Source of the DNA: a virus
Lineage: Duplodnaviria > Heunggongvirae > Uroviricota > Caudoviricetes
Strand: one strand, 5' to 3'
Length of the DNA: 6,799 nt
Virus record (IMG/VR): IMGVR_UViG_2547132252_000010
Location: 1 to 6,799 of that record
Part shown: piece after piece, positions 35 through 6,780 of the stretch
Numbering within the stretch: the stretch's first letter is position 1
How the letters are laid out: each line of letters begins with the position of its first letter
The notes under the pieces: generated by a model
What the model was told of the DNA's origin: nothing
The model's database searches: none
Seen by the model: the letters and a program-made list of their open reading frames with translations, nothing else
Translations under genes and position numbers: made by a program

Positions 35-924
35 TCAGGCTGCCAGATCATCGTTTCCGATGGAAGCATAATAAGCTTTTTCTGCTTCTGCCGGAGGAGT
101 ATGGCCCAGCCTTCCCAGCAATCGTCGATTGTTATACCAGTCCACCCACGTTAGTGTGGCCAGTTCCACTTCTGCACGGTTTTTCCAGCTCTTACGGTGT
201 ATTACCTCCGCTTTGTAAAGACCATTGATGCTCTCAGCCATCGCGTTGTCATACGAGTCGCCTGTACTCCCTGTTGATGCCAGTAATCCGGCTTCTTTTA
301 GTCGCTCCGTATAGGCCAGTGACACATACTGAGAGCCTTTATCGCTGTGATGGATGGTGCCAGACGGACGACGGGCCCACAACGCCTGCTCCAGCGCATC
401 CAGCACGAATGTCGTTTCCATAGACGATGAGACCCGCCACCCCACGATGTATCCGGCAAACACATCAATGATAAACGCCACATAGACGAAGCCCTGCCAT
501 GTGCTGACGTAAGTAAAATCAGCCACCCACAGCTGGTCAGGTCGTTCTGCCACGAACTGACGGTTTACGCGGTCGCCTGCGGCAACGGCTTTCCGGCTGA
601 TGGTCGTACGGACCTTTTTACCCCGGAGAACACCGGCAAGTCCCATAACCGCCATGAGACGTGCCACTGTACATCTGGCCACCTGATTCCTTCCCGTAAC
701 AACTGACGCCAGACTTTACGCACACCGTACACCTGATGATTTTCATCGTATACGCGCTGTATCTCTCTCTTCAGCCAGTCGTCGTGCTGCGCACGGGCAC
801 TGCGTTTATCCGGATGATGTCGCTGTTGCTGACAATGGTAATACGTTGACGGGGCAATATGCAGTTCGCTGCATACCGGTCCGACCCCGTACTGCTCACG
901 CAGCTTATCCAGCAGTGGCATCAT
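35..924 (-). pseudogene. IS3-family transposase OrfB (DDE integrase core), frame-disrupted: N-terminal part 565..924 and C-terminal DDE part 35..682 are in different frames
   Basis: IS3-family OrfB is normally one ORF of about 290-300 aa. Here the N-terminal segment ([16 protein letters not shown]...RQLLREGIR) and the DDE catalytic segment (VARCTVARLMAV...WVADFTY...HHSDKGSQY...ESINGLYKAEV...) sit in different frames and overlap across 565-682. The switch maps to about 682-683, where the minus strand reads atc agg tgg cc; one extra G (atc agg gtg gcc) would give the continuous REGIRVARCTV reading. Confidence 0.65.
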
Positions 925-1247
925 TTTTTCCAGAGGCGGTCGAACTCCGCCTTCGCAAAATAAGCGGAAGCCTGGCGAAGGATATCGTTACTGCGGCGCA
1001 GTTCACGATTTTCACGTTCCAGCTCTTTCAGACGCTGACGTTCAGCGCTGGTGAGCCCACCATCACCGCCCCCGGTATCCCGCTCATGCTGGCGAACCCA
1101 GACACGCAGAGTCTCCGGCGTACAGCCAATCTTTGGGGCAATGGAACAAATTGCCGCCCACTGTGAGTCATATTCATCCTGACTTTCCAGAACCATACGA
1201 ATCGCCCGCTGACGGACTTCGGGGGAAAAACGAGTATTTTTAGTCAT
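921..1247 (-). CDS. IS3-family transposase OrfA (HTH DNA-binding subunit), 108 aa
   Basis: [33 protein letters not shown]...[36 protein letters not shown] with an HTH followed by a leucine-zipper-like segment. Its stop overlaps the start of the orfB frame at a T6 run (plus-strand 924-929, A6 on the coding strand), the usual IS3-family -1 frameshift window. Confidence 0.9.
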
Positions 1248-1339
1248 CCTGTTTACCTCTTTCTCAGGGAGTTTAGTCTCCAGGATTTCCGGGGCGGTTC
1301 ACACCAAGTCTGGCCGCGAATTTCTTAGCATCACCAACC

Positions 1340-1467
1340 CTTAATGATTTAATAAACTCTTTTAATGTCATACCTTCCTCGGTTTAGTGTTTTTTGCGAG
1401 TTTAGTGTTTAATAAACCATTAAGTCAAGTATTTGCTTGTTTAGTGATTACTAAAGATAATTACCAC
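1340..1467 (+). promoter_or_regulatory. Candidate promoter-operator region of the TA operon: five direct repeats of TTTA(G/A)TG(A/T) with about 20-bp spacing, plus a sigma70-like -35/-10 pair placing the transcript start at or next to the ATG (leaderless)
   Basis: Repeat copies start near 1340, 1361, 1383, 1401 and 1440; longer forms are TTAATGATTTAATAAACT (1341-1358) and TTTAGTGTTTAATAAACC (1401-1418). TTGCTT at 1433-1438, a 17-bp spacer and GATAAT at 1456-1461 fit a promoter, and there is no Shine-Dalgarno before the ATG at 1468. Promoter and operator roles are inferred. Confidence 0.4.
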
Positions 1468-1838: not shown

Positions 1839-1858
1839 GTTATAAAACCGGAGGAAAC

Positions 1859-2050
1859 ATGAATAGAGCCCTTTCACCAATGGTTTCTGAATTTGAAACC
1901 ATTGAACAAGAAAACAGTTACAACGAATGGCTGCGTGCGAAAGTAGCAACGAGCCTTGCAGATCCGCGCCCAGCAATTCCCCATGACGAAGTTGAGCGCA
2001 GAATGGCAGAACGCTTTGCTAAGATGCGCAAGGAACGGAGCAAGCAGTAA
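1859..2050 (+). CDS. paaA2: Small antitoxin of a ParE-type three-component TA system (PaaA2-like), 63 aa
   Basis: ATG at 1859 preceded by GGAGGA (1850-1855). The product MNRALSPMVSEFETIEQENSYNEWLRAKVATSLADPRPAIPHDEVERRMAERFAKMRKERSKQ is small, charged and helical, and matches my recollection of PaaA2. Its stop (2048-2050) lies 1 nt before the toxin ATG. Confidence 0.75.
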   Translation: MNRALSPMVSEFETIEQENSYNEWLRAKVATSLADPRPAIPHDEVERRMAERFAKMRKERSKQ

Positions 2051-2051
2051 A

Positions 2052-2330
2052 ATGTTACCCGTGTTATGGCTTGAAAGCGCAGATACCGACCTAGATGATA
2101 TAACTAGTTATATTGCTCGTTTCGACATAGATGCGGCTGAACGCTTATGGCAGCGATTAAGGGGTTGTGTGCTGCCGTTATCCGAACATCCGTATTTATA
2201 CCCACCAAGCGACAGAGTACCTGGCTTGCGTGAGATTGTAGCCCACCCTAACTATATAATTCTATACCGCGTAACAACATCAAGCGTTGAAGTAGTAAAC
2301 GTGATCCACGCAAGACGCCAGTTTCCCTAA
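2052..2330 (+). CDS. parE2: ParE/RelE-superfamily toxin (ParE2-like), 92 aa
   Basis: MLPVLWLESADTDLDDITSYIARFDIDAAERLWQRLRGCVLPLSEHPYLYPPSDRVPGLREIVAHPNYIILYRVTTSSVEVVNVIHARRQFP has the ParE-family pattern (D-x-x-I-x-x-YIA, RE-[IL]-V, YIILYRV). The start at 2052 is tightly coupled to the antitoxin stop; the in-frame ATG at 1956 would overlap paaA2 by 95 nt and is rejected. Confidence 0.85.
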   Translation: MLPVLWLESADTDLDDITSYIARFDIDAAERLWQRLRGCVLPLSEHPYLYPPSDRVPGLREIVAHPNYIILYRVTTSSVEVVNVIHARRQFP

Positions 2331-2350
2331 CTTTCACTACCAATAGAAAC

Positions 2351-2393
2351 ATAACAACCGCAACGACTTTATCAAAAGCGTTGTGTTTGTTAT
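2351..2393 (+). terminator. Candidate intrinsic terminator after the TA operon: 15-bp A/U-rich stem (one mismatch, one G-U) with a 13-nt loop and U-rich 3' arm
   Basis: ataacaaccgcaacg (2351-2365) pairs with cgttgtgtttgttat (2379-2393), starting 21 nt after the parE2 stop. The stem is atypically long and AT-rich, so the call is weak. Confidence 0.3.
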
Positions 2394-2400
2394 GTCCCGC

Positions 2401-2441
2401 GGTTTAGTTTTTACTTGGCTTAAGTTTAATGTTTATTAAAC
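2401..2441. repeat. Paralogous second copy of the operator-like block found upstream of the regulator
   Basis: GGTTTAGTTTTTACTTGGCTTAAGTTTAATGTTTATTAAAC (2401-2441) aligns with GGTTTAGTGTTTTTTGCGAGTTTAGTGTTTAATAAAC (1381-1417), sharing the GGTTTAGT head and the TTTA(A/G)TGTTTA(A/T)TAAAC core. Confidence 0.45.
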
Positions 2442-2680
2442 TAAAAATACCAACCACCCCGCCCCACAGAACGCAGGGAAATACTTCGAGTTACCCGGCA
2501 GTGGTCAGGGGTTAAGTAGCCAGCCCGAGGCGTATGAACATGACGGCAGGGTTCAACTTTAATAACTATGCAGCAGTTTTTTGTTCCGCTACCCCGGCGT
2601 TAAGGGGAAACAGAGGGTTTCTCAGTGGGCGAAGTCAAACATCAGAATGGAAGGCATCCCGGGATCGGCAAAGAAGCAGC

Positions 2681-2711
2681 AATGGCGCTTTATATTGACA
2701 TCAGCGCCATT
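2681..2711 (-). terminator. Possible terminator hairpin downstream of the minus-strand zinc-ribbon gene
   Basis: Perfect 9-bp inverted repeat AATGGCGCT (2681-2689) and AGCGCCATT (2703-2711) with a 13-nt loop, about 50 nt past the stop at 2760-2762. On the minus strand it is followed by GCUGCUUCUUUG, only moderately U-rich, and the loop is large. Confidence 0.2.
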
Positions 2712-2759
2712 GCAGGACAGGTAAGAGTTATCAGAGCGGTAACTAAGCGGTATGCGCCT

Positions 2760-2960
2760 TTACTTCAGAAAGTCTCTGGTGAGTGCACCGAAGATATTGT
2801 CAACGATTTCGTCATCGAACTGCGAGGACTCATCTTCAGTTACAAGGTGACCACAATTTTTGCAGATGGCTCCCGCGAAACTGTCAGAGCCCTGCGGCTT
2901 AAAGGATGTGTCAAAGACTTCGCCACCACATTCTGGGCAAGAAAACTTGATTGTATTCAT
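2760..2960 (-). CDS. Small C4 zinc-ribbon protein with acidic C-terminal tail, 66 aa
   Basis: The minus-strand ATG at 2960 is preceded by AGGA with an 8-nt spacer (gagAGGAaattggttATG). The product MNTIKFSCPECGGEVFDTSFKPQGSDSFAGAICKNCGHLVTEDESSQFDDEIVDNIFGALTRDFLK has C-P-E-C and C-K-N-C pairs about 21 residues apart, then an acidic tail. The overlapping plus-strand ORF 2625..2981 has no ribosome-binding site and is taken as antisense noise. Confidence 0.6.
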   Translation of the reverse strand: MNTIKFSCPECGGEVFDTSFKPQGSDSFAGAICKNCGHLVTEDESSQFDDEIVDNIFGALTRDFLK

Positions 2961-3052
2961 AACCAATTTCCTCTCGAGTAACAGACCCCTCAGAGGATAC
3001 CACCTCGCCTGACGTGGTTAAAAGCAGGCAACGCTAACCACAAGGAGCCGAC

Positions 3053-3271
3053 ATGCAGAAACGAGAACCCGTCATCATCGCGCCAGACTATACCGATGAT
3101 GAACTTTATGAGTGGATGCACCAGAAAATTAATGCAGCGCAGGATCTGAAATGGGCCAATGAAGCCAGGGCTAAGCAGGCTGAAAATCTGTCCGCTCTGG
3201 AGCAGGATATCACCAATCTGGAAAAAGCAGCGGCATTAAGCATTGCCAGAATGATTACATACCCGCGTTAA
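3053..3271 (+). CDS. Hypothetical small protein, 72 aa, predicted helical/coiled-coil
   Basis: ATG at 3053 is preceded by AAGGAG (3042-3047) with a 5-nt spacer. The product is MQKREPVIIAPDYTDDELYEWMHQKINAAQDLKWANEARAKQAENLSALEQDITNLEKAAALSIARMITYPR. It is divergent from the zinc-ribbon gene across a 92-bp intergenic region; no family recognised. Confidence 0.55.
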   Translation: MQKREPVIIAPDYTDDELYEWMHQKINAAQDLKWANEARAKQAENLSALEQDITNLEKAAALSIARMITYPR

Positions 3272-3627
3272 TAGCTAACCAACGAAGCTAAGGTTGGTAA
3301 TTAAGGAGTTCTCCACGGGTGAGGTGGAGTGCGTGCGCCGGACACGGGTGAGCATACGGCACTGACAGTTTACTGAAAGGATATTTCCCTGAAAAGTCAG
3401 ACCATAACGCGAAAGCGCACGGCGAGGTAGCTGGTTCATAGATAGCCTGTCGTTAAATTTTCGTCGACCGTGCGCTTCCGGTTGTGGCAATCCGCGAAAT
3501 GGCGCGGCGGTAAGTATGGAGGGGTTATTCCTTCCCCCGTTGAGGACACCGGGTTGTCAGGTTGACCATACGCTTAAGTGACAACCCCGCTGCAACGCCC
3601 TCTGTTATCAATTTTCTGGTGACGTTT

Positions 3628-3670
3628 GGCGGTATCAGTTTTACTCCGTGACTGCTCTGCCGCCCTTTTT
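3628..3670 (+). terminator. Candidate intrinsic terminator: GC-rich 7-bp basal stem (GGCGGUA/UGCCGCC) plus apical 4-bp stem, followed by CUUUUUAAA
   Basis: GGCGGTA (3628-3634) pairs with TGCCGCC (3658-3664), and CAGT (3636-3639) with ACTG (3651-3654); a T5 run follows at 3666-3670. It lies about 400 nt after the stop of the 72-aa gene and just before the 19-bp inverted repeat. Confidence 0.35.
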
Positions 3671-3674
3671 AAAG

Positions 3675-3822
3675 TGAATTTTGTGATGCGGTGAATGCGG
3701 CTGAGCGCACGCGGAACAGTTAAAACCAAAAACAGTGTTATGGGGGGATTCTCTGTATCCGGCGTTAATTGTTAACTGGTTAACGTCACCTGGAGGCACC
3801 AGGCACCGCATCACAAAATTCA
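3675..3822. repeat. 148-bp segment bounded by perfect 19-bp inverted repeats (TGAATTTTGTGATGCGGTG at 3675-3693; reverse complement at 3804-3822)
   Basis: Direct reading: the arms are exact reverse complements and the match stops at both boundaries. The 110-bp interior holds three GTTAA(C) repeats (3766-3784, including GTTAACTGGTTAAC at 3771-3784) and a tandem GGCACCAGGCACC (3795-3807). The right arm ends 17 nt before the ATG at 3840 and 5 nt before its GAGGA ribosome-binding site. Confidence 0.7.
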
Positions 3823-3839
3823 TTGTTGAGGACGCGATA

Positions 3840-4028
3840 ATGGAAACGTTATTACCAAACGTTAATACGTCTGAAGGTTGTTTTGAAATTGGTGTCACTA
3901 TCAGTAACCCTGTATTTACTGAAGATGCCATTAACAAGAGAAAACACGAACGGGAGCTATTAAATAAAATATGCATTCTTTCAATGCTGGCCCGTTTACG
4001 TCCGATACAAAAAGGATGCTGGCAATGA
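3840..4028 (+). CDS. Hypothetical small protein, 62 aa
   Basis: ATG at 3840 is preceded by GAGGA (3828-3832) with a 7-nt spacer. The product is METLLPNVNTSEGCFEIGVTISNPVFTEDAINKRKHERELLNKICILSMLARLRPIQKGCWQ. Its TGA stop (4026-4028) overlaps the next ATG (4025-4027) as ATGA, implying translational coupling. The longer track ORF from 3735 has no ribosome-binding site and would run through the inverted-repeat arm. Confidence 0.45.
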   Translation: METLLPNVNTSEGCFEIGVTISNPVFTEDAINKRKHERELLNKICILSMLARLRPIQKGCWQ

Positions 4029-4216
4029 ATACAGCATTTGCACTTGTTCTGACAGTTTTTCTTGTTTCCGGAGAGCCAGTTGATATTGCAGTCAGTGTTC
4101 ACAGGACAATGCAGGAGTGTGTGACTGCAGCAACCGAACAGAAAATTCCCGGTAACTGTTACCCGGTCGATAAAGTTATTCACCAGGATAATAACGAAAT
4201 CCCGGCAGGTCTTTAA
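4025..4216 (+). CDS. Hypothetical small membrane-associated protein, 63 aa, hydrophobic N-terminal segment
   Basis: ATG at 4025 is preceded by AAGGA with an 8-nt spacer (aaaAAGGAtgctggcaATG). The product MNTAFALVLTVFLVSGEPVDIAVSVHRTMQECVTAATEQKIPGNCYPVDKVIHQDNNEIPAGL has an uncharged hydrophobic stretch at residues 3-16 (one transmembrane helix or atypical signal) and two Cys. The alternative start at 3971 lacks a properly spaced Shine-Dalgarno. Confidence 0.45.
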   Translation: MNTAFALVLTVFLVSGEPVDIAVSVHRTMQECVTAATEQKIPGNCYPVDKVIHQDNNEIPAGL

Positions 4217-4308
4217 AACAGTTCCGTAATAAACATCCGATTTCATTCTTATATGCCAGCAATGGCAGGGATTTGTTCACCCTTAAATCTGTAATGAGGT
4301 AAAACAAA

Positions 4309-6780
4309 ATGAGTAAAGTCTTTATTTGCGCCGCCATTCCGGACGAACAGGCAATAAAGGAAGAAGGTGCCGTCGCTGTAGCCACTGCCATTGAAGCCGG
4401 TGATGAACGTCGCGCCCGCGCAAAATTTCACTGGCAATTCCTGGAACATTATCCGGCTGCTCAGGACTGCGCTTATAAATTTCTTGTTTGCGAGGATAAA
4501 CCCGGTATACCCCGCCCTGCCCTCGATTCCTGGGATGCTGAATATATGCAGGAAAACCGCTGGGATGAGGCGTCTGCTTCCTTTGTCCCGGTCGAGACTG
4601 AATCCGATCCGATGAACGTCACTTTTGACAACCTGGCCCCTGAAGTACAGAACGCTGTCATGGTTAAGTTCGACACATGTGAAAACATCACTGTTGATAT
4701 GGTGATTAGCGCACAGGAATTGTTGCAGGAAGACATGGCAACATTCGACGGCCATATCGTTGAAGCGTTGATGAAAATGCCAGAAGTTAACGCCATGTAT
4801 CCGGAGCTTAAGCTGCATGCCATCGGGTGGGTTAAGCATAAATGTAAGCCTGGTGCCAAATGGCCCGAAATTCAGGCAGAGATGCGCATCTGGAAAAAAC
4901 GTCGCGAAGGTGAACGCAAGGAAGCCGGAAAATACACGTCTGTTGTTGATCTCGCCCGCGCCAGAGCCAATCAACAGCACACTGAAAATTCAACAGGAAA
5001 AATCAACCCGGTCATTGCTGCCATTCATCGCGAATACAAGCAGACATGGAAAACACTGGATGACGAACTGGCCTACGCTCTCTGGCCTGGTGATGTGGAT
5101 GCCGGAAACATTGACGGCAGCATCCATCGCTGGGCAAAAAATGAAGTTATCGACAACGGCCGCGAAGACTGGAAGCGTATCTCGGCATCAATGCGCAAAC
5201 AGCCTGATGCCCTTCGCTACGACCGCCAGACTATTTTTGGCCTTGTCCGTGAACGTCCGATCGACATTCACAAAGACCCTGTGGCACTGAACAAATACAT
5301 TACTGAATACCTGACTACAAAGGGCGTGTTTGAAGATGAAGGAACAAATCAGAGCGCAACTGACACTCTCTCGTCGCCAGTACCAGAAACTGATGCAGTG
5401 GAAACGGCAATTCCGGACAACGAAAAAACCGAATGCAAAGTGGAAGTCGAACCATCTGTAGAGCGTGAGGGGCCGTTCTACTTCCTCTTCACCGACAAGG
5501 ATGGCGAAAAATACGGTCGCGCAAACAAACTTTCTGGTCTGGATAAGGCGCTGGCTGCCGGGGCTACTGAAATCACAAAAGAAGAATATTTTGCCCGAAA
5601 AAATGGCACATACACAGGCTTACCGCAAAATGCAAATACCGCACAAAATTCTGAACAACCAGAACCGGTAAAAGTTACCGCTGACGAAGTAAAGAAAATT
5701 ATGCAGGCAGCCAATATCAGCCAGCCTGACGCCAATCAGTTGCTCGCCGCATCACGTGGTGAATTTGTTGCAGGGATTAGCGACCCGAATGATCCGAAAT
5801 GGGTGAAGGGGATTGAAACCCGCGATTCTGTGAACCAGAACCAGCAAGAAACGGAACAGAACGACCAGAAAGCGGAACAAAACAGCCCAAATACGCAACA
5901 AAACGAGCCAGAAACGAAACAACCTGAGCCAGTAGCGCAACAGGAACCGGAAAAAGTCTGCACCGCCTGCGGTCAGACCGGCGGCGGCAACTGCCCTGAT
6001 TGTGGCGCGGTGATGGGCGACGCAACATACCAGGAAACATTCGATGAAGAGTATCAGGTTGAAGTTCAGGAAGATGATCCGGAGGAAATGGAAGGCGCTG
6101 AACATCCACACAAGGAGAACACTGACGGCAATCAGCATCACGATAGCGATAATGAAACTGGCGAGACGGCAGATCACTCAATTAAGGTGAACGGTCATCA
6201 AGAAATCACATCCACCAGCAGGACGTGTGACCATCTAATGATCGACCTTGAAACCATGGGAAAAAATCCTGATGCCCCGATCATCTCAATAGGTGCAATA
6301 TTTTTCGATCCGCAAACCGGAGATATGGGACCGGAATTTAGTAAGACTATCGATCTGGAAACTGCTGGCGGGGTCATTGATCGGGACACCATTAAATGGT
6401 GGCTTAAGCAATCACGCGAAGCGCAATCTGCCATTATGACCGATGAAATCCCGTTAGATGATGCACTATTACAATTGCGGGAATTTATCGACGAAAACTC
6501 CGGTGAATTTTTTGTTCAGGTCTGGGGAAATGGAGCCAACTTCGACAACACGATTTTGCGCCGTTCATACGAACGGCAGGGGATCCCCTGCCCGTGGCGT
6601 TACTACAACGATCGCGATGTACGCACAATCGTTGAGCTGGGGAAAGCCATAGACTTCGATGCCAGAACGGCTATTCCATTCGAAGGTGAGCGCCATAATG
6701 CACTTGATGACGCCCGTTACCAGGCAAAATACGTTTCAGTTATCTGGCAAAAACTGATCCCGAATCAGGCTGATTTTTAA
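4309..6780 (+). CDS. Prophage recombination-type exonuclease, 823 aa: long N-terminal and linker region (RecE-like by recollection) with an internal C4 zinc ribbon, fused to a C-terminal DEDDh (DnaQ/ExoX-like) 3'-5' exonuclease domain
   Basis: ATG at 4309 is preceded by GAGGT with an 8-nt spacer. The C-terminal domain (from about M644, nt 6238) carries the three DEDDh motifs: Exo I MIDLETMG (D-x-E), Exo II WGNGANFD, Exo III HNALDDARYQAKY (H-x4-D). Upstream are a C-x2-C-x21-C-x2-C zinc ribbon (codons 551-565, nt 5959-6003) and an acidic Q/N/E/P-rich low-complexity linker. The middle region (LLAASRGEFVAGISDPNDPKWVKGI...CTACGQTGGGNCPDCGAVMGDATYQETFDEE) matches my memory of central RecE; this is unverified. 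Confidence 0.9.
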   Translation: MSKVFICAAIPDEQAIKEEGAVAVATAIEAGDERRARAKFHWQFLEHYPAAQDCAYKFLVCEDKPGIPRPALDSWDAEYMQENRWDEASASFVPVETESDPMNVTFDNLAPEVQNAVMVKFDTCENITVDMVISAQELLQEDMATFDGHIVEALMKMPEVNAMYPELKLHAIGWVKHKCKPGAKWPEIQAEMRIWKKRREGERKEAGKYTSVVDLARARANQQHTENSTGKINPVIAAIHREYKQTWKTLDDELAYALWPGDVDAGNIDGSIHRWAKNEVIDNGREDWKRISASMRKQPDALRYDRQTIFGLVRERPIDIHKDPVALNKYITEYLTTKGVFEDEGTNQSATDTLSSPVPETDAVETAIPDNEKTECKVEVEPSVEREGPFYFLFTDKDGEKYGRANKLSGLDKALAAGATEITKEEYFARKNGTYTGLPQNANTAQNSEQPEPVKVTADEVKKIMQAANISQPDANQLLAASRGEFVAGISDPNDPKWVKGIETRDSVNQNQQETEQNDQKAEQNSPNTQQNEPETKQPEPVAQQEPEKVCTACGQTGGGNCPDCGAVMGDATYQETFDEEYQVEVQEDDPEEMEGAEHPHKENTDGNQHHDSDNETGETADHSIKVNGHQEITSTSRTCDHLMIDLETMGKNPDAPIISIGAIFFDPQTGDMGPEFSKTIDLETAGGVIDRDTIKWWLKQSREAQSAIMTDEIPLDDALLQLREFIDENSGEFFVQVWGNGANFDNTILRRSYERQGIPCPWRYYNDRDVRTIVELGKAIDFDARTAIPFEGERHNALDDARYQAKYVSVIWQKLIPNQADF

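Follow-up and report, generated by a model that had tools for sequence, protein, structure and literature searches.

The analyzed window, a stretch of 6,799 nucleotides of prophage DNA (IMG/VR record IMGVR_UViG_2547132252_000010), carries a + strand operon downstream of an IS3-family element, and the last gene of this operon encodes a RecE-like exonuclease. An O157 prophage had been guessed in the preliminary description of the window, and the guess was borne out by a megablast search of complete E. coli genomes, in which positions 3000-3850 were 100% identical to O157:H7 chromosomes and had a match in 4734 of the 5426 genomes. The K-12 Qin dicBF locus was 97.9-98% identical across ydfC to dicB (3040-3860), with equal gene order. 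In K-12 Qin, the genes dicA, ydfA, ydfB, and ydfC are followed by 567 nt of unannotated sequence, dicB, ydfD, and an exonuclease gene. The O157:H7 copy differs in its upstream part, where a RelB/RelE pair and a small zinc-ribbon gene take the place of ydfA and ydfB, and in the presence of the IS3-family element. In the matching O157 and K-12 RefSeq records, the region is annotated as flanked by ydfC and dicB. The O157 genomes were multicopy for the locus (as many as 8 places in one record, in the records listed), so the copy in the window could be silent. The features of the locus are listed in Table 1.

Table 1. Genes, RNA features, and helices of the ydfC-dicB region and its surroundings (positions within the window)
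Feature	Position	Strand	Description
IS3-family element	about 35-1247	-	ALIL frameshift pseudoknot at 850-966
ydfC	3053-3271	+	ORF of 72 aa; 'protein YdfC' in O157 and K-12 records; phrog_1744 at 1e-39
Variable mosaic part of the 3′ UTR	3272-3401	+	hairpins 3278-3283/3293-3298 and 3311-3316/3324-3329; two CACGGGTGAG repeats
Long hairpin	3402-3487	+	outer stem of ~23 pairs, 3402-3427 with 3462-3487 (MFE fold)
Conserved structured RNA domain	3481-3596	+	116 nt; predicted four helices and pseudoknot; body of the 190-nt species
Helix P1	3481-3488 with 3589-3596		
Helix P2	3492-3496 with 3503-3507		
Pseudoknot helix	3514-3519 with 3566-3571		extendable by 3509-3511 with 3572-3574
Helix P3	3521-3524 with 3534-3537		
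Helix P4	3551-3559 with 3579-3587		identical to the 9-bp dyad of the preliminary description
A/U-rich linker	3597-3612	+	single-stranded; putative RNase E cut at its 3′ edge (3612/3613), from identity to K-12
DicF sRNA and terminator	3613-3670	+	53-nt sRNA 3613-3665; stem-loop 3628-3664; U tail 3666-3670
Structured domain downstream of DicF	3675-3822	+	19-bp stem 3675-3693/3804-3822 closing about 110 nt
dicB	3840-4028	+	62 aa; annotated dicB in O157 and K-12 records; expression needs read-through of the DicF terminator

The region 3272-3670 is the long 3′ UTR of ydfC, or the ydfC-dicB intercistronic region of the dicBF operon. The same position, on the sense strand of the gap between the two genes, was found in the identical O157 loci and in the 98%-identical K-12 locus. 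An Rfam scan, which had been suggested as a check, placed the DicF RNA (RF00039) at 3614-3665 on the + strand with 76.7 bits, exceeding the gathering score of 48 across the full model (1-52 of 52) and assigning the sequence to this family. The terminator-like hairpin noticed earlier at 3628-3670 is real and has a G+C-rich stem followed by U5; it is the 3′ stem-loop of DicF. The structured transcript proposed from the sequence (sRNA, regulatory leader, or processed UTR) was a correct reading in that a ydfC 3′ UTR ending in the sRNA DicF lies here. DicF was among the first bacterial sRNAs to be described, and its omission from the preliminary description led to an overrated novelty, since the processed, structured transcript here is the already known DicF locus. 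The 53 nt of DicF are identical in the window and K-12, and the two loci share the order ydfC-dicF-dicB-ydfD-exonuclease, the same terminator, and surroundings of 98% identity. In a review, DicF is derived from the ydfC 3′ UTR and named the first example of the class of 3′-UTR/intra-operonic sRNAs (PMC9438474). The whole is best explained, with high confidence, as the untranslated ydfC-dicB RNA of the early-left, pL-type operon of a Qin-like, lambdoid O157:H7 prophage, which ends in the Hfq-dependent DicF, a regulator of cell division, and is processed.

The region is non-coding. As had been observed before, it contains no convincing ORF, the sole sizeable one being located on the minus strand at 3275-3490 (71 aa). 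In some RefSeq records, part of this ORF is annotated as the hypothetical protein WP_001331716.1; a version of 54 aa was called by PGAP in strain TR01, and automatic 'hypothetical protein' calls also overlap the homologous region in several phage records. These annotations, and the presence of the ORF itself, are what favors a decayed or unannotated protein gene, an explanation of negligible probability in view of the following. The minus-strand ORF had no match in Pfam or PHROG, and the 50 variable sites among 26 homologs were distributed 18/14/18 by position mod 3, i.e., without codon periodicity. One homolog has a 29-nt deletion (3314-3342) inside this ORF, exactly between the CACGGGTGAG repeats, and the + strand ORF 3470-3565 is interrupted in K-12 by an indel of 1 nt. 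A conserved frame, a codon-position bias, and a family match were not found, and the same bases carry RNA-type compensatory changes on the + strand. The decayed gene mentioned as an alternative in the preliminary description is therefore not borne out, given the indels in homologs, the missing family match, and the missing periodicity.

All of the dyads reported earlier, as well as the direct repeat, were found in the sequence. The 10-bp dyad 3413-3422/3468-3477 is real and extends to 13 nt with 92% complementarity (3410-3422/3468-3480), the 9-bp dyad 3551-3559/3579-3587 is perfect, and the stem at 3276-3300 corresponds to a 6-bp hairpin (3278-3283/3293-3298). The direct repeat CACGGGTGAG is present at 3314-3323 and 3343-3352. 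The impression of an unusual density of dyads was confirmed against 1000 dinucleotide-preserving shuffles with loops of up to 120 nt. The region contains three perfect inverted repeats of at least 9 nt (0.145 in shuffles, P = 0.007), five of at least 8 nt (shuffle mean 0.63, P = 0.009), and one of at least 10 nt (shuffle mean 0.03, P = 0.025). The MFE z-score of the + strand relative to shuffles was -2.4. Conservation of the stems across homologs, expected of a structured transcript, held for two of them: the 9-bp dyad covaries, and the stem core that contains the 10-bp dyad keeps its pairing. The hairpin 3278-3298 was rejected as a conserved structure and gets no structural support because the K-12 substitutions are not cleanly compensatory.

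The upstream part of the region is variable, with homology breakpoints in other genomes at about 3292, 3314, 3332, and 3392. In the BL21-type prophage, the flank at about 3031 directly adjoins the one at about 3405, so that ydfC together with the stretch 3272-3401 behaves as an inserted cassette. The 10-bp dyad forms the core of the long hairpin that follows. Among 26 homologs, the sole base substitutions in the stem core 3410-3427/3462-3480 (at 3420 and 3423) keep pairing as G-U, and a 3-nt deletion in one homolog removes the 5′ partner of the innermost stem pair. Pair-breaking changes are located at the outer base of the hairpin (3402 and 3408). In the BL21 and STEC434 types, the apex has been swapped for unrelated sequence and the stem has been kept. 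This hairpin is probably the substrate whose cleavage by RNase III creates the 5′ end of the 190-nt species of DicF.

The processing of the transcript has been studied in K-12, where DicF is made from a polycistronic transcript started at dicBp; the 190-nt species is gone in an rnc mutant, and upon inactivation of RNase E the 53-nt species is gone and the 190-nt species accumulates (PMC10448788). Primer extension revealed a 5′ end that depends on RNase III and detected no promoter inside the operon, RT-PCR showed a continuous ydfA-dicF transcript, and transcripts either end at the DicF terminator or run on through dicB-ydfD (PMC10448788). Ragunathan et al. 2023 (PMC10448788) thereby corroborate what Faubladier et al. 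had found in 1990. The 3′ end of a 72-nt DicF species is made by RNase III on read-through transcripts (PMC9438474). In the literature on global RNase III mapping, DicF was mentioned only in passing. The stems found here are located at the ends reported for the RNase III and RNase E products. If 190 nt are counted back from the 3′ end of DicF (3665), position 3476 is reached, within the 3′ arm of the long hairpin, and the RNase III site was placed at 3476-3480 from the reported length of the 190-nt species. The 53-nt DicF begins at 3613, the Rfam match one position later. Its extension to 72 nt (3613 + 71 = 3684) ends in the 5′ arm of the 19-bp stem downstream of DicF, which is perfect (19/19 complementary), lies just upstream of the dicB ribosome-binding site, and is probably the RNase III site for the 72-nt species. 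An STnc100-like match (RF02076, model 21-154 of 206) was detected at 3677-3817, and its 39.4 bits fall below the score of 47 required for membership.

According to this scheme, the operon would be transcribed from a repressor-controlled promoter upstream, and part of the transcripts would end at the intrinsic terminator of DicF, the others reading through into dicB. A cut by RNase III in the long hairpin would produce the stable 190-nt species with a 5′ end at about 3476-3480, from which RNase E would release the 53-nt DicF by cutting the linker at 3612/3613. The sRNA would then pair with the ftsZ, manX, xylR, and pykA mRNAs and, in EHEC, with the pchA mRNA. On read-through transcripts, a cut by RNase III in the 19-bp stem starting at 3675 would yield the 72-nt DicF. 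These steps have been shown experimentally for K-12 Qin, which is 98% identical; we infer that they apply to the copy in the window and that the cuts fall in the particular stems named. An independent sRNA gene with its own promoter inside 3272-3612 is very unlikely, as both the RNase III dependence of the K-12 190-nt 5′ end and the continuity of the ydfA-dicF transcript argue against it, and a promoter scan of 2300-4400 detected no + strand sigma-70-like site. Such a gene would nevertheless agree with a second promoter upstream of dicB, suggested by an older study that is cited in PMC10448788, and with the situation in phage P1, where a copy of the sequence 3481-3596 does sit directly behind a promoter.

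Judged from covariation, the segment 3481-3596 between the RNase III cut and the RNase E cut is not a spacer but a conserved domain with four predicted helices and a pseudoknot. In a MAFFT alignment of 72 distinct homologs, 95.4% of cells were paired, in comparison with 32-57% in slid controls. In these homologs, 11 pairs were changed on both sides versus 3.3 ± 1.4 in shuffles (0/500), and the model-fitted alignment yielded 12 such pairs. Helix P4 in Izhakiella is GGGUAACCA/UGGUUACCC where the window has GGGUUGUCA/UGACAACCC, and the pseudoknot helix in phage P1 is GCAUGG/CCAUGC in place of GUAUGG/CCAUAC. Of 40 sequence variants, 35 were predicted to fold a P3 hairpin; its stem differed widely among them, and its loop was rich in pyrimidines. 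Helix P1 is dispensable, being missing in phage P1 and in deletion variants fused at the CGCGAAA repeat. Its 5′ strand (GUUGUGG) is at the same time the base of the RNase III hairpin, so that helix P1 would form only once this hairpin has been cut or opened. The most invariant segments of the domain are loops and junctions (GGCGCGGCGGUAAGUAUGG and CAGGUUGACCAUACGC), an invariance imposed in part by the search pattern. A local pseudoknot between the P3 loop (UCCUU) and GAGGA in the P3-P4 junction fitted the window and one other variant class; it was dropped for lack of fit in phage P1, Izhakiella, Erwinia, and Trabulsiella. With Rfam 15 at E ≤ 10, nothing overlapped 3481-3596 in the window, for which DicF and the sub-threshold STnc100 alone were reported. 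At E ≤ 0.01, the six distant copies of the domain, from P1, cdtI, F1055, Erwinia, and Izhakiella, matched no family, and a search of the E. coli genome revealed no similarity to host RNAs.

When 3272-3670 was compared with phage genomes by BLAST, a segment of about 3481-3604 was seen to occur alone, at 75-91% identity, without the upstream part and without DicF. The domain was carried by 61 of the 50,697 phage records searched, including phage cdtI, Stx2c phages, phage 2H10, Salmonella phage F1055, and an Actinobacillus phage, as well as P1, P7, RCS47, and SJ46. The P1 record annotates 68791-68892 as a 'dicF-like region'. Pattern scans found the domain in 80 IMG/VR loci and, in addition, in Escherichia, Shigella, Citrobacter, Trabulsiella, Erwinia tracheiphila, and Izhakiella. 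A covariance model identified one copy in each of 100 loci and, in flanks covering a few kilobases, no second, pR-side copy. By the same kind of model, the domain is absent from K-12 Rac, which has a DicF-like hairpin (39 bits) and an STnc100-like leader upstream of kilR.

In every case, the domain was found in an early operon, on its sense strand. In phage P1, it starts about 35 nt past the C1-controlled Pban start and is followed by a terminator, tRNA genes, and ban; in cdtI and the Stx2c phages, it is located about 290-350 nt after cI and a pL-like promoter; elsewhere, it follows dicA-like repressors. Concerning the lambdoid phages with a pL-type promoter that carry the domain, none of the first five early-left genes in a Stx2c phage was N-like. 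In 81 of 83 distinct flanks downstream, the next element is a hairpin with an energy of -10 kcal/mol or better and, behind it, T4 or more; a hairpin with a T-run is visible by eye in the remaining two. These hairpins differ (DicF, the cdtI type, the P1 type, and others), and those after distant copies of the domain were not called DicF by Rfam. The genes farther downstream also differ by context, being dicB/kil, phrog_204, or tRNAs and ban. Among 24 full-length homologs of 3392-4028, the diversity of the domain was 0.049 with pattern-fixed positions excluded, compared with 0.137 for the DicF seed, 0.139 for the DicF hairpin, and 0.126 for the RNase III hairpin. The domain thus has about one third of the diversity of the DicF seed and hairpin, a comparison subject to some ascertainment bias since the homologs were gathered through two anchors inside the domain.

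Several known systems resemble this arrangement in part. The RNase E-released sRNAs SroC, CpxQ, and SdhX likewise share the terminator of an upstream coding transcript and are released endonucleolytically; here, in contrast, the coding sequence is separated from the sRNA by an RNase III hairpin and by a large pseudoknotted domain, which is conserved independently and more strongly than the sRNA seed. The C4 RNA of P1/P7 (RF01695) and the CI RNA of P4 are also structured RNAs processed from early phage transcripts, and P1 carries both C4 and the domain. However, no Rfam C4 or isrK match was obtained at the domain, and its locus in P1 is the ban leader, not immI. With riboswitch-type leaders, the domain has in common a conserved multi-helix, pseudoknotted fold followed by an intrinsic terminator and same-strand genes, and the structured domain directly before an intrinsic terminator that would be expected of a riboswitch or attenuator was found in the 81 flanks mentioned above. 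It differs from such leaders in that the downstream genes are unrelated across contexts, that no mutually exclusive antiterminator pairing was seen on inspection, and that nothing points to a ligand.

As to its function, the domain may quite possibly, at somewhat less than an even chance, be the folded protective 5′ body of the precursor, which would prolong the life of the 190-nt RNA and offer the linker to RNase E. The domain could equally carry a function of its own. A protective role does not account for the stronger conservation of the domain relative to the sRNA that it would shield, nor for its occurrence in front of unrelated terminator hairpins in P1 and cdtI-type phages. A second reading, of an RNA acting in trans, is unlikely: a stable RNA, e.g., an early protein-binding decoy, would be made, and DicF and the other hairpins would serve merely as terminators. 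In its favor, the promoter-domain-terminator unit of phage P1 is compact (about 180 nt) and close in size to the stable 190-nt species of K-12, invariance is highest in loops and junctions, as expected of a binding surface, and the neighboring genes vary by context, so that none stands out as a phage-encoded partner. Part of these segments, however, owe their invariance to the homolog search pattern, and the missing similarity to host RNAs in the E. coli genome also weighs against a trans-acting RNA.

A third reading, a cis-acting antiterminator or attenuator like put of phage HK022 that sets read-through of DicF-type terminators into downstream genes, is possible and is held with low confidence. 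With similarly guarded expectation, the genes controlled would be dicB/kil and the recombination genes in N-less lambdoid phages and the tRNA genes and ban in P1. The HK022 put RNA comprises two stem-loops (about 70 nt), is present in one copy per early operon (putL and putR), and causes factor-independent antitermination through the zinc-binding domain of the RNA polymerase beta′ subunit. To our knowledge, antitermination by RNA alone has so far been known only from HK022 put. Both put and the domain are sense-strand structured RNAs of N-less lambdoid phages that lie behind an early repressor-controlled promoter and have a terminator next to them, and putL, too, directly precedes a terminator-like hairpin. 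The placement of the domain throughout in early operons, on the sense strand and downstream of a repressor-controlled promoter, agrees with a cis-acting role, as do the hairpin with T4 or more in 81 of the 83 flanks, the stronger conservation of the domain in comparison with the terminator/sRNA part, and the Stx2c phage, in which none of the first five early-left genes encodes an N-like protein. Against this role, the domain shows no sequence or structure similarity to put by covariance model: with filters off, the model of the domain gave no match at putL or putR of HK022 (NC_002166; 640-712, minus strand, and 1860-1925, + strand), and its best matches in HK022 reached at most 9.8 bits and fell outside these sites. 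The architecture also differs, with four helices and a pseudoknot in 116 nt versus two stem-loops in about 70 nt, and the domain is single-copy per phage region, with no pR-side copy within the few kilobases of flank covered at the 100 loci. A 9-mer shared with HK022 (GCGCGGCGG) is present in putL only; it was treated as a chance match for that reason, and put homology was rejected. In the variant classes inspected, no conserved alternative pairing was seen between the domain and the terminator; as candidates for an antiterminator, the domain and linker offered only complementarities of 4-5 nt to the terminator, without covariation, and these were discarded. Finally, K-12 Rac has a DicF-like terminator and an STnc100-like leader without the domain, which indicates that DicF-like terminators do not need it. 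A tentative proposal, held with low confidence, is that the domain represents an undescribed, mobile phage RNA family with a cis effect on RNA polymerase or on the adjacent terminator, by which it would set the read-through into delayed-early genes. This family would span the Qin-, cdtI/Stx2c-, and mEp460-type lambdoid phages and the ban leader of P1/P7.

The ydfC-dicB RNA ending in DicF thus adds nothing new on DicF itself and is a rediscovery of this sRNA with its processed precursor. By position, one of the two dyads noticed from the sequence coincides with the probable RNase III site and the other with a covarying helix of the domain. The sole part that looks undescribed is the pseudoknotted domain upstream of DicF; no description of it was found in the literature searched, and older reports of dicF-like homology may already cover it. 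Most of the 190-nt 'long DicF' consists of this domain, which the literature found treats as mere precursor sequence. If the domain controls termination or processing, this would explain how these phages are able to maintain a strong terminator or an sRNA gene in the middle of an early operon, and it would provide a testable handle on the low levels of the toxic dicB and kil in EHEC and K-12 lysogens. If the cis-acting role is true, the domain would be a second, structurally unrelated case of RNA-only antitermination, and DicF and its relatives would be by-products of controlled terminators.

The segment GUUGUGG (3481-3487) of the conserved RNA domain upstream of DicF has two possible partners: the upstream CCAUAAC (3402-3408), with which it closes the foot of the putative RNase III hairpin, and the downstream GCUGCAAC (3589-3596), with which it forms helix P1 of the domain. 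The upstream partner in the BL21-type prophage is CACAAC, and the pairing is perfect there. With two pairings available, the domain may therefore change its fold upon processing. The 9-mer GUUGAGGAC was present twice, at the P3-P4 junction of the domain (3539-3547) and in the dicB Shine-Dalgarno region (3825-3833), and GAGGA is complementary to the P3 loop (UUAUUCCUU). Both the shared 9-mer and this loop complementarity may be coincidental.

On the other side of DicF, a 110-nt domain is enclosed by a perfect 19-bp inverted repeat and was matched to STnc100 below the threshold (39.4 bits vs 47). The 5' arm of the repeat would contain the RNase III 3' end of the 72-nt form of DicF known from published work. 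In cdtI-type phages the terminator is likewise followed by a comparable long stem (~2680-2790 in the phage cdtI locus). The coordinates of this repeat and of the other features of the window are listed in the table.

Repeats, insertion element and small genes in the window
Feature	Position	Strand	Remark
IS3-family element, IS629/IS1203-like	about 35-1247		
orfB of the element	35-924	-	
orfA of the element	921-1247	-	
ALIL pseudoknot	850-966		within the IS3-family element
Truncated helix-turn-helix ORF	1273-1371	-	adjoins the IS3-family element
RelB/RelE toxin-antitoxin pair	1858-2329		early-left operon; homology to strain TR01
Small ECs_2282-family zinc-ribbon gene	2760-2966	opposite	just upstream of ydfC; homology to strain TR01
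Two direct repeats CACGGGTGAG	3314-3352		border a 29-nt unit
Perfect 19-bp inverted repeat TGAATTTTGTGATGCGGTG / CACCGCATCACAAAATTCA	3675-3822		downstream of DicF, ahead of the dicB ribosome-binding site

Together with the initial 130 nt of the 3' UTR that follows it, ydfC (~3031-3404 in all) behaves like an inserted cassette, and its flanks, ...GGTTAAAAGCAGGCA and ACGAAAGCGCACGG..., are joined directly in the BL21-type prophage (L145 ~2440-2500). The 29-nt unit between the direct repeats was missing from one IMG/VR homolog, which suggests slippage or recombination between the copies rather than a functional repeat. Strain TR01 carries the same prophage without the insertion element at this site; its IS is located in the exonuclease gene instead.

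Among the related loci, the K-12 Rac prophage (L148 7480-7723, minus strand) contains a DicF-like hairpin scoring below the threshold (RF00039, 39.1 bits), followed by an STnc100-like leader directly upstream of kilR; the conserved upstream domain was absent from this locus. In Actinobacillus phage vB_Apl-pPE4 (L126 2100-2270), whose other features (DicA, YdaT, Kil, and exonuclease VIII) resemble those of Rac/Qin-type lambdoid phages of E. coli, a single copy of the domain precedes a tandem duplicate of the unit comprising the P1 3' strand, seed, and terminator. The loci from Salmonella F1055 (L127 2140-2200), Erwinia (L143), and Izhakiella (L144) have AGGAGG inside the long terminator hairpin downstream of the domain and, 7-9 nt after it, ATG or GTG in the hairpin loop, an arrangement that may represent a very short ORF or a terminator coupled to translation. 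The phage cdtI locus (L004 40-228, minus strand) encodes a C4 antisense RNA (68.4 bits) and isrK (60 bits), both adjoining the antirepressor gene; this phage therefore combines the DicF-upstream domain with an immunity RNA of the C4 type.
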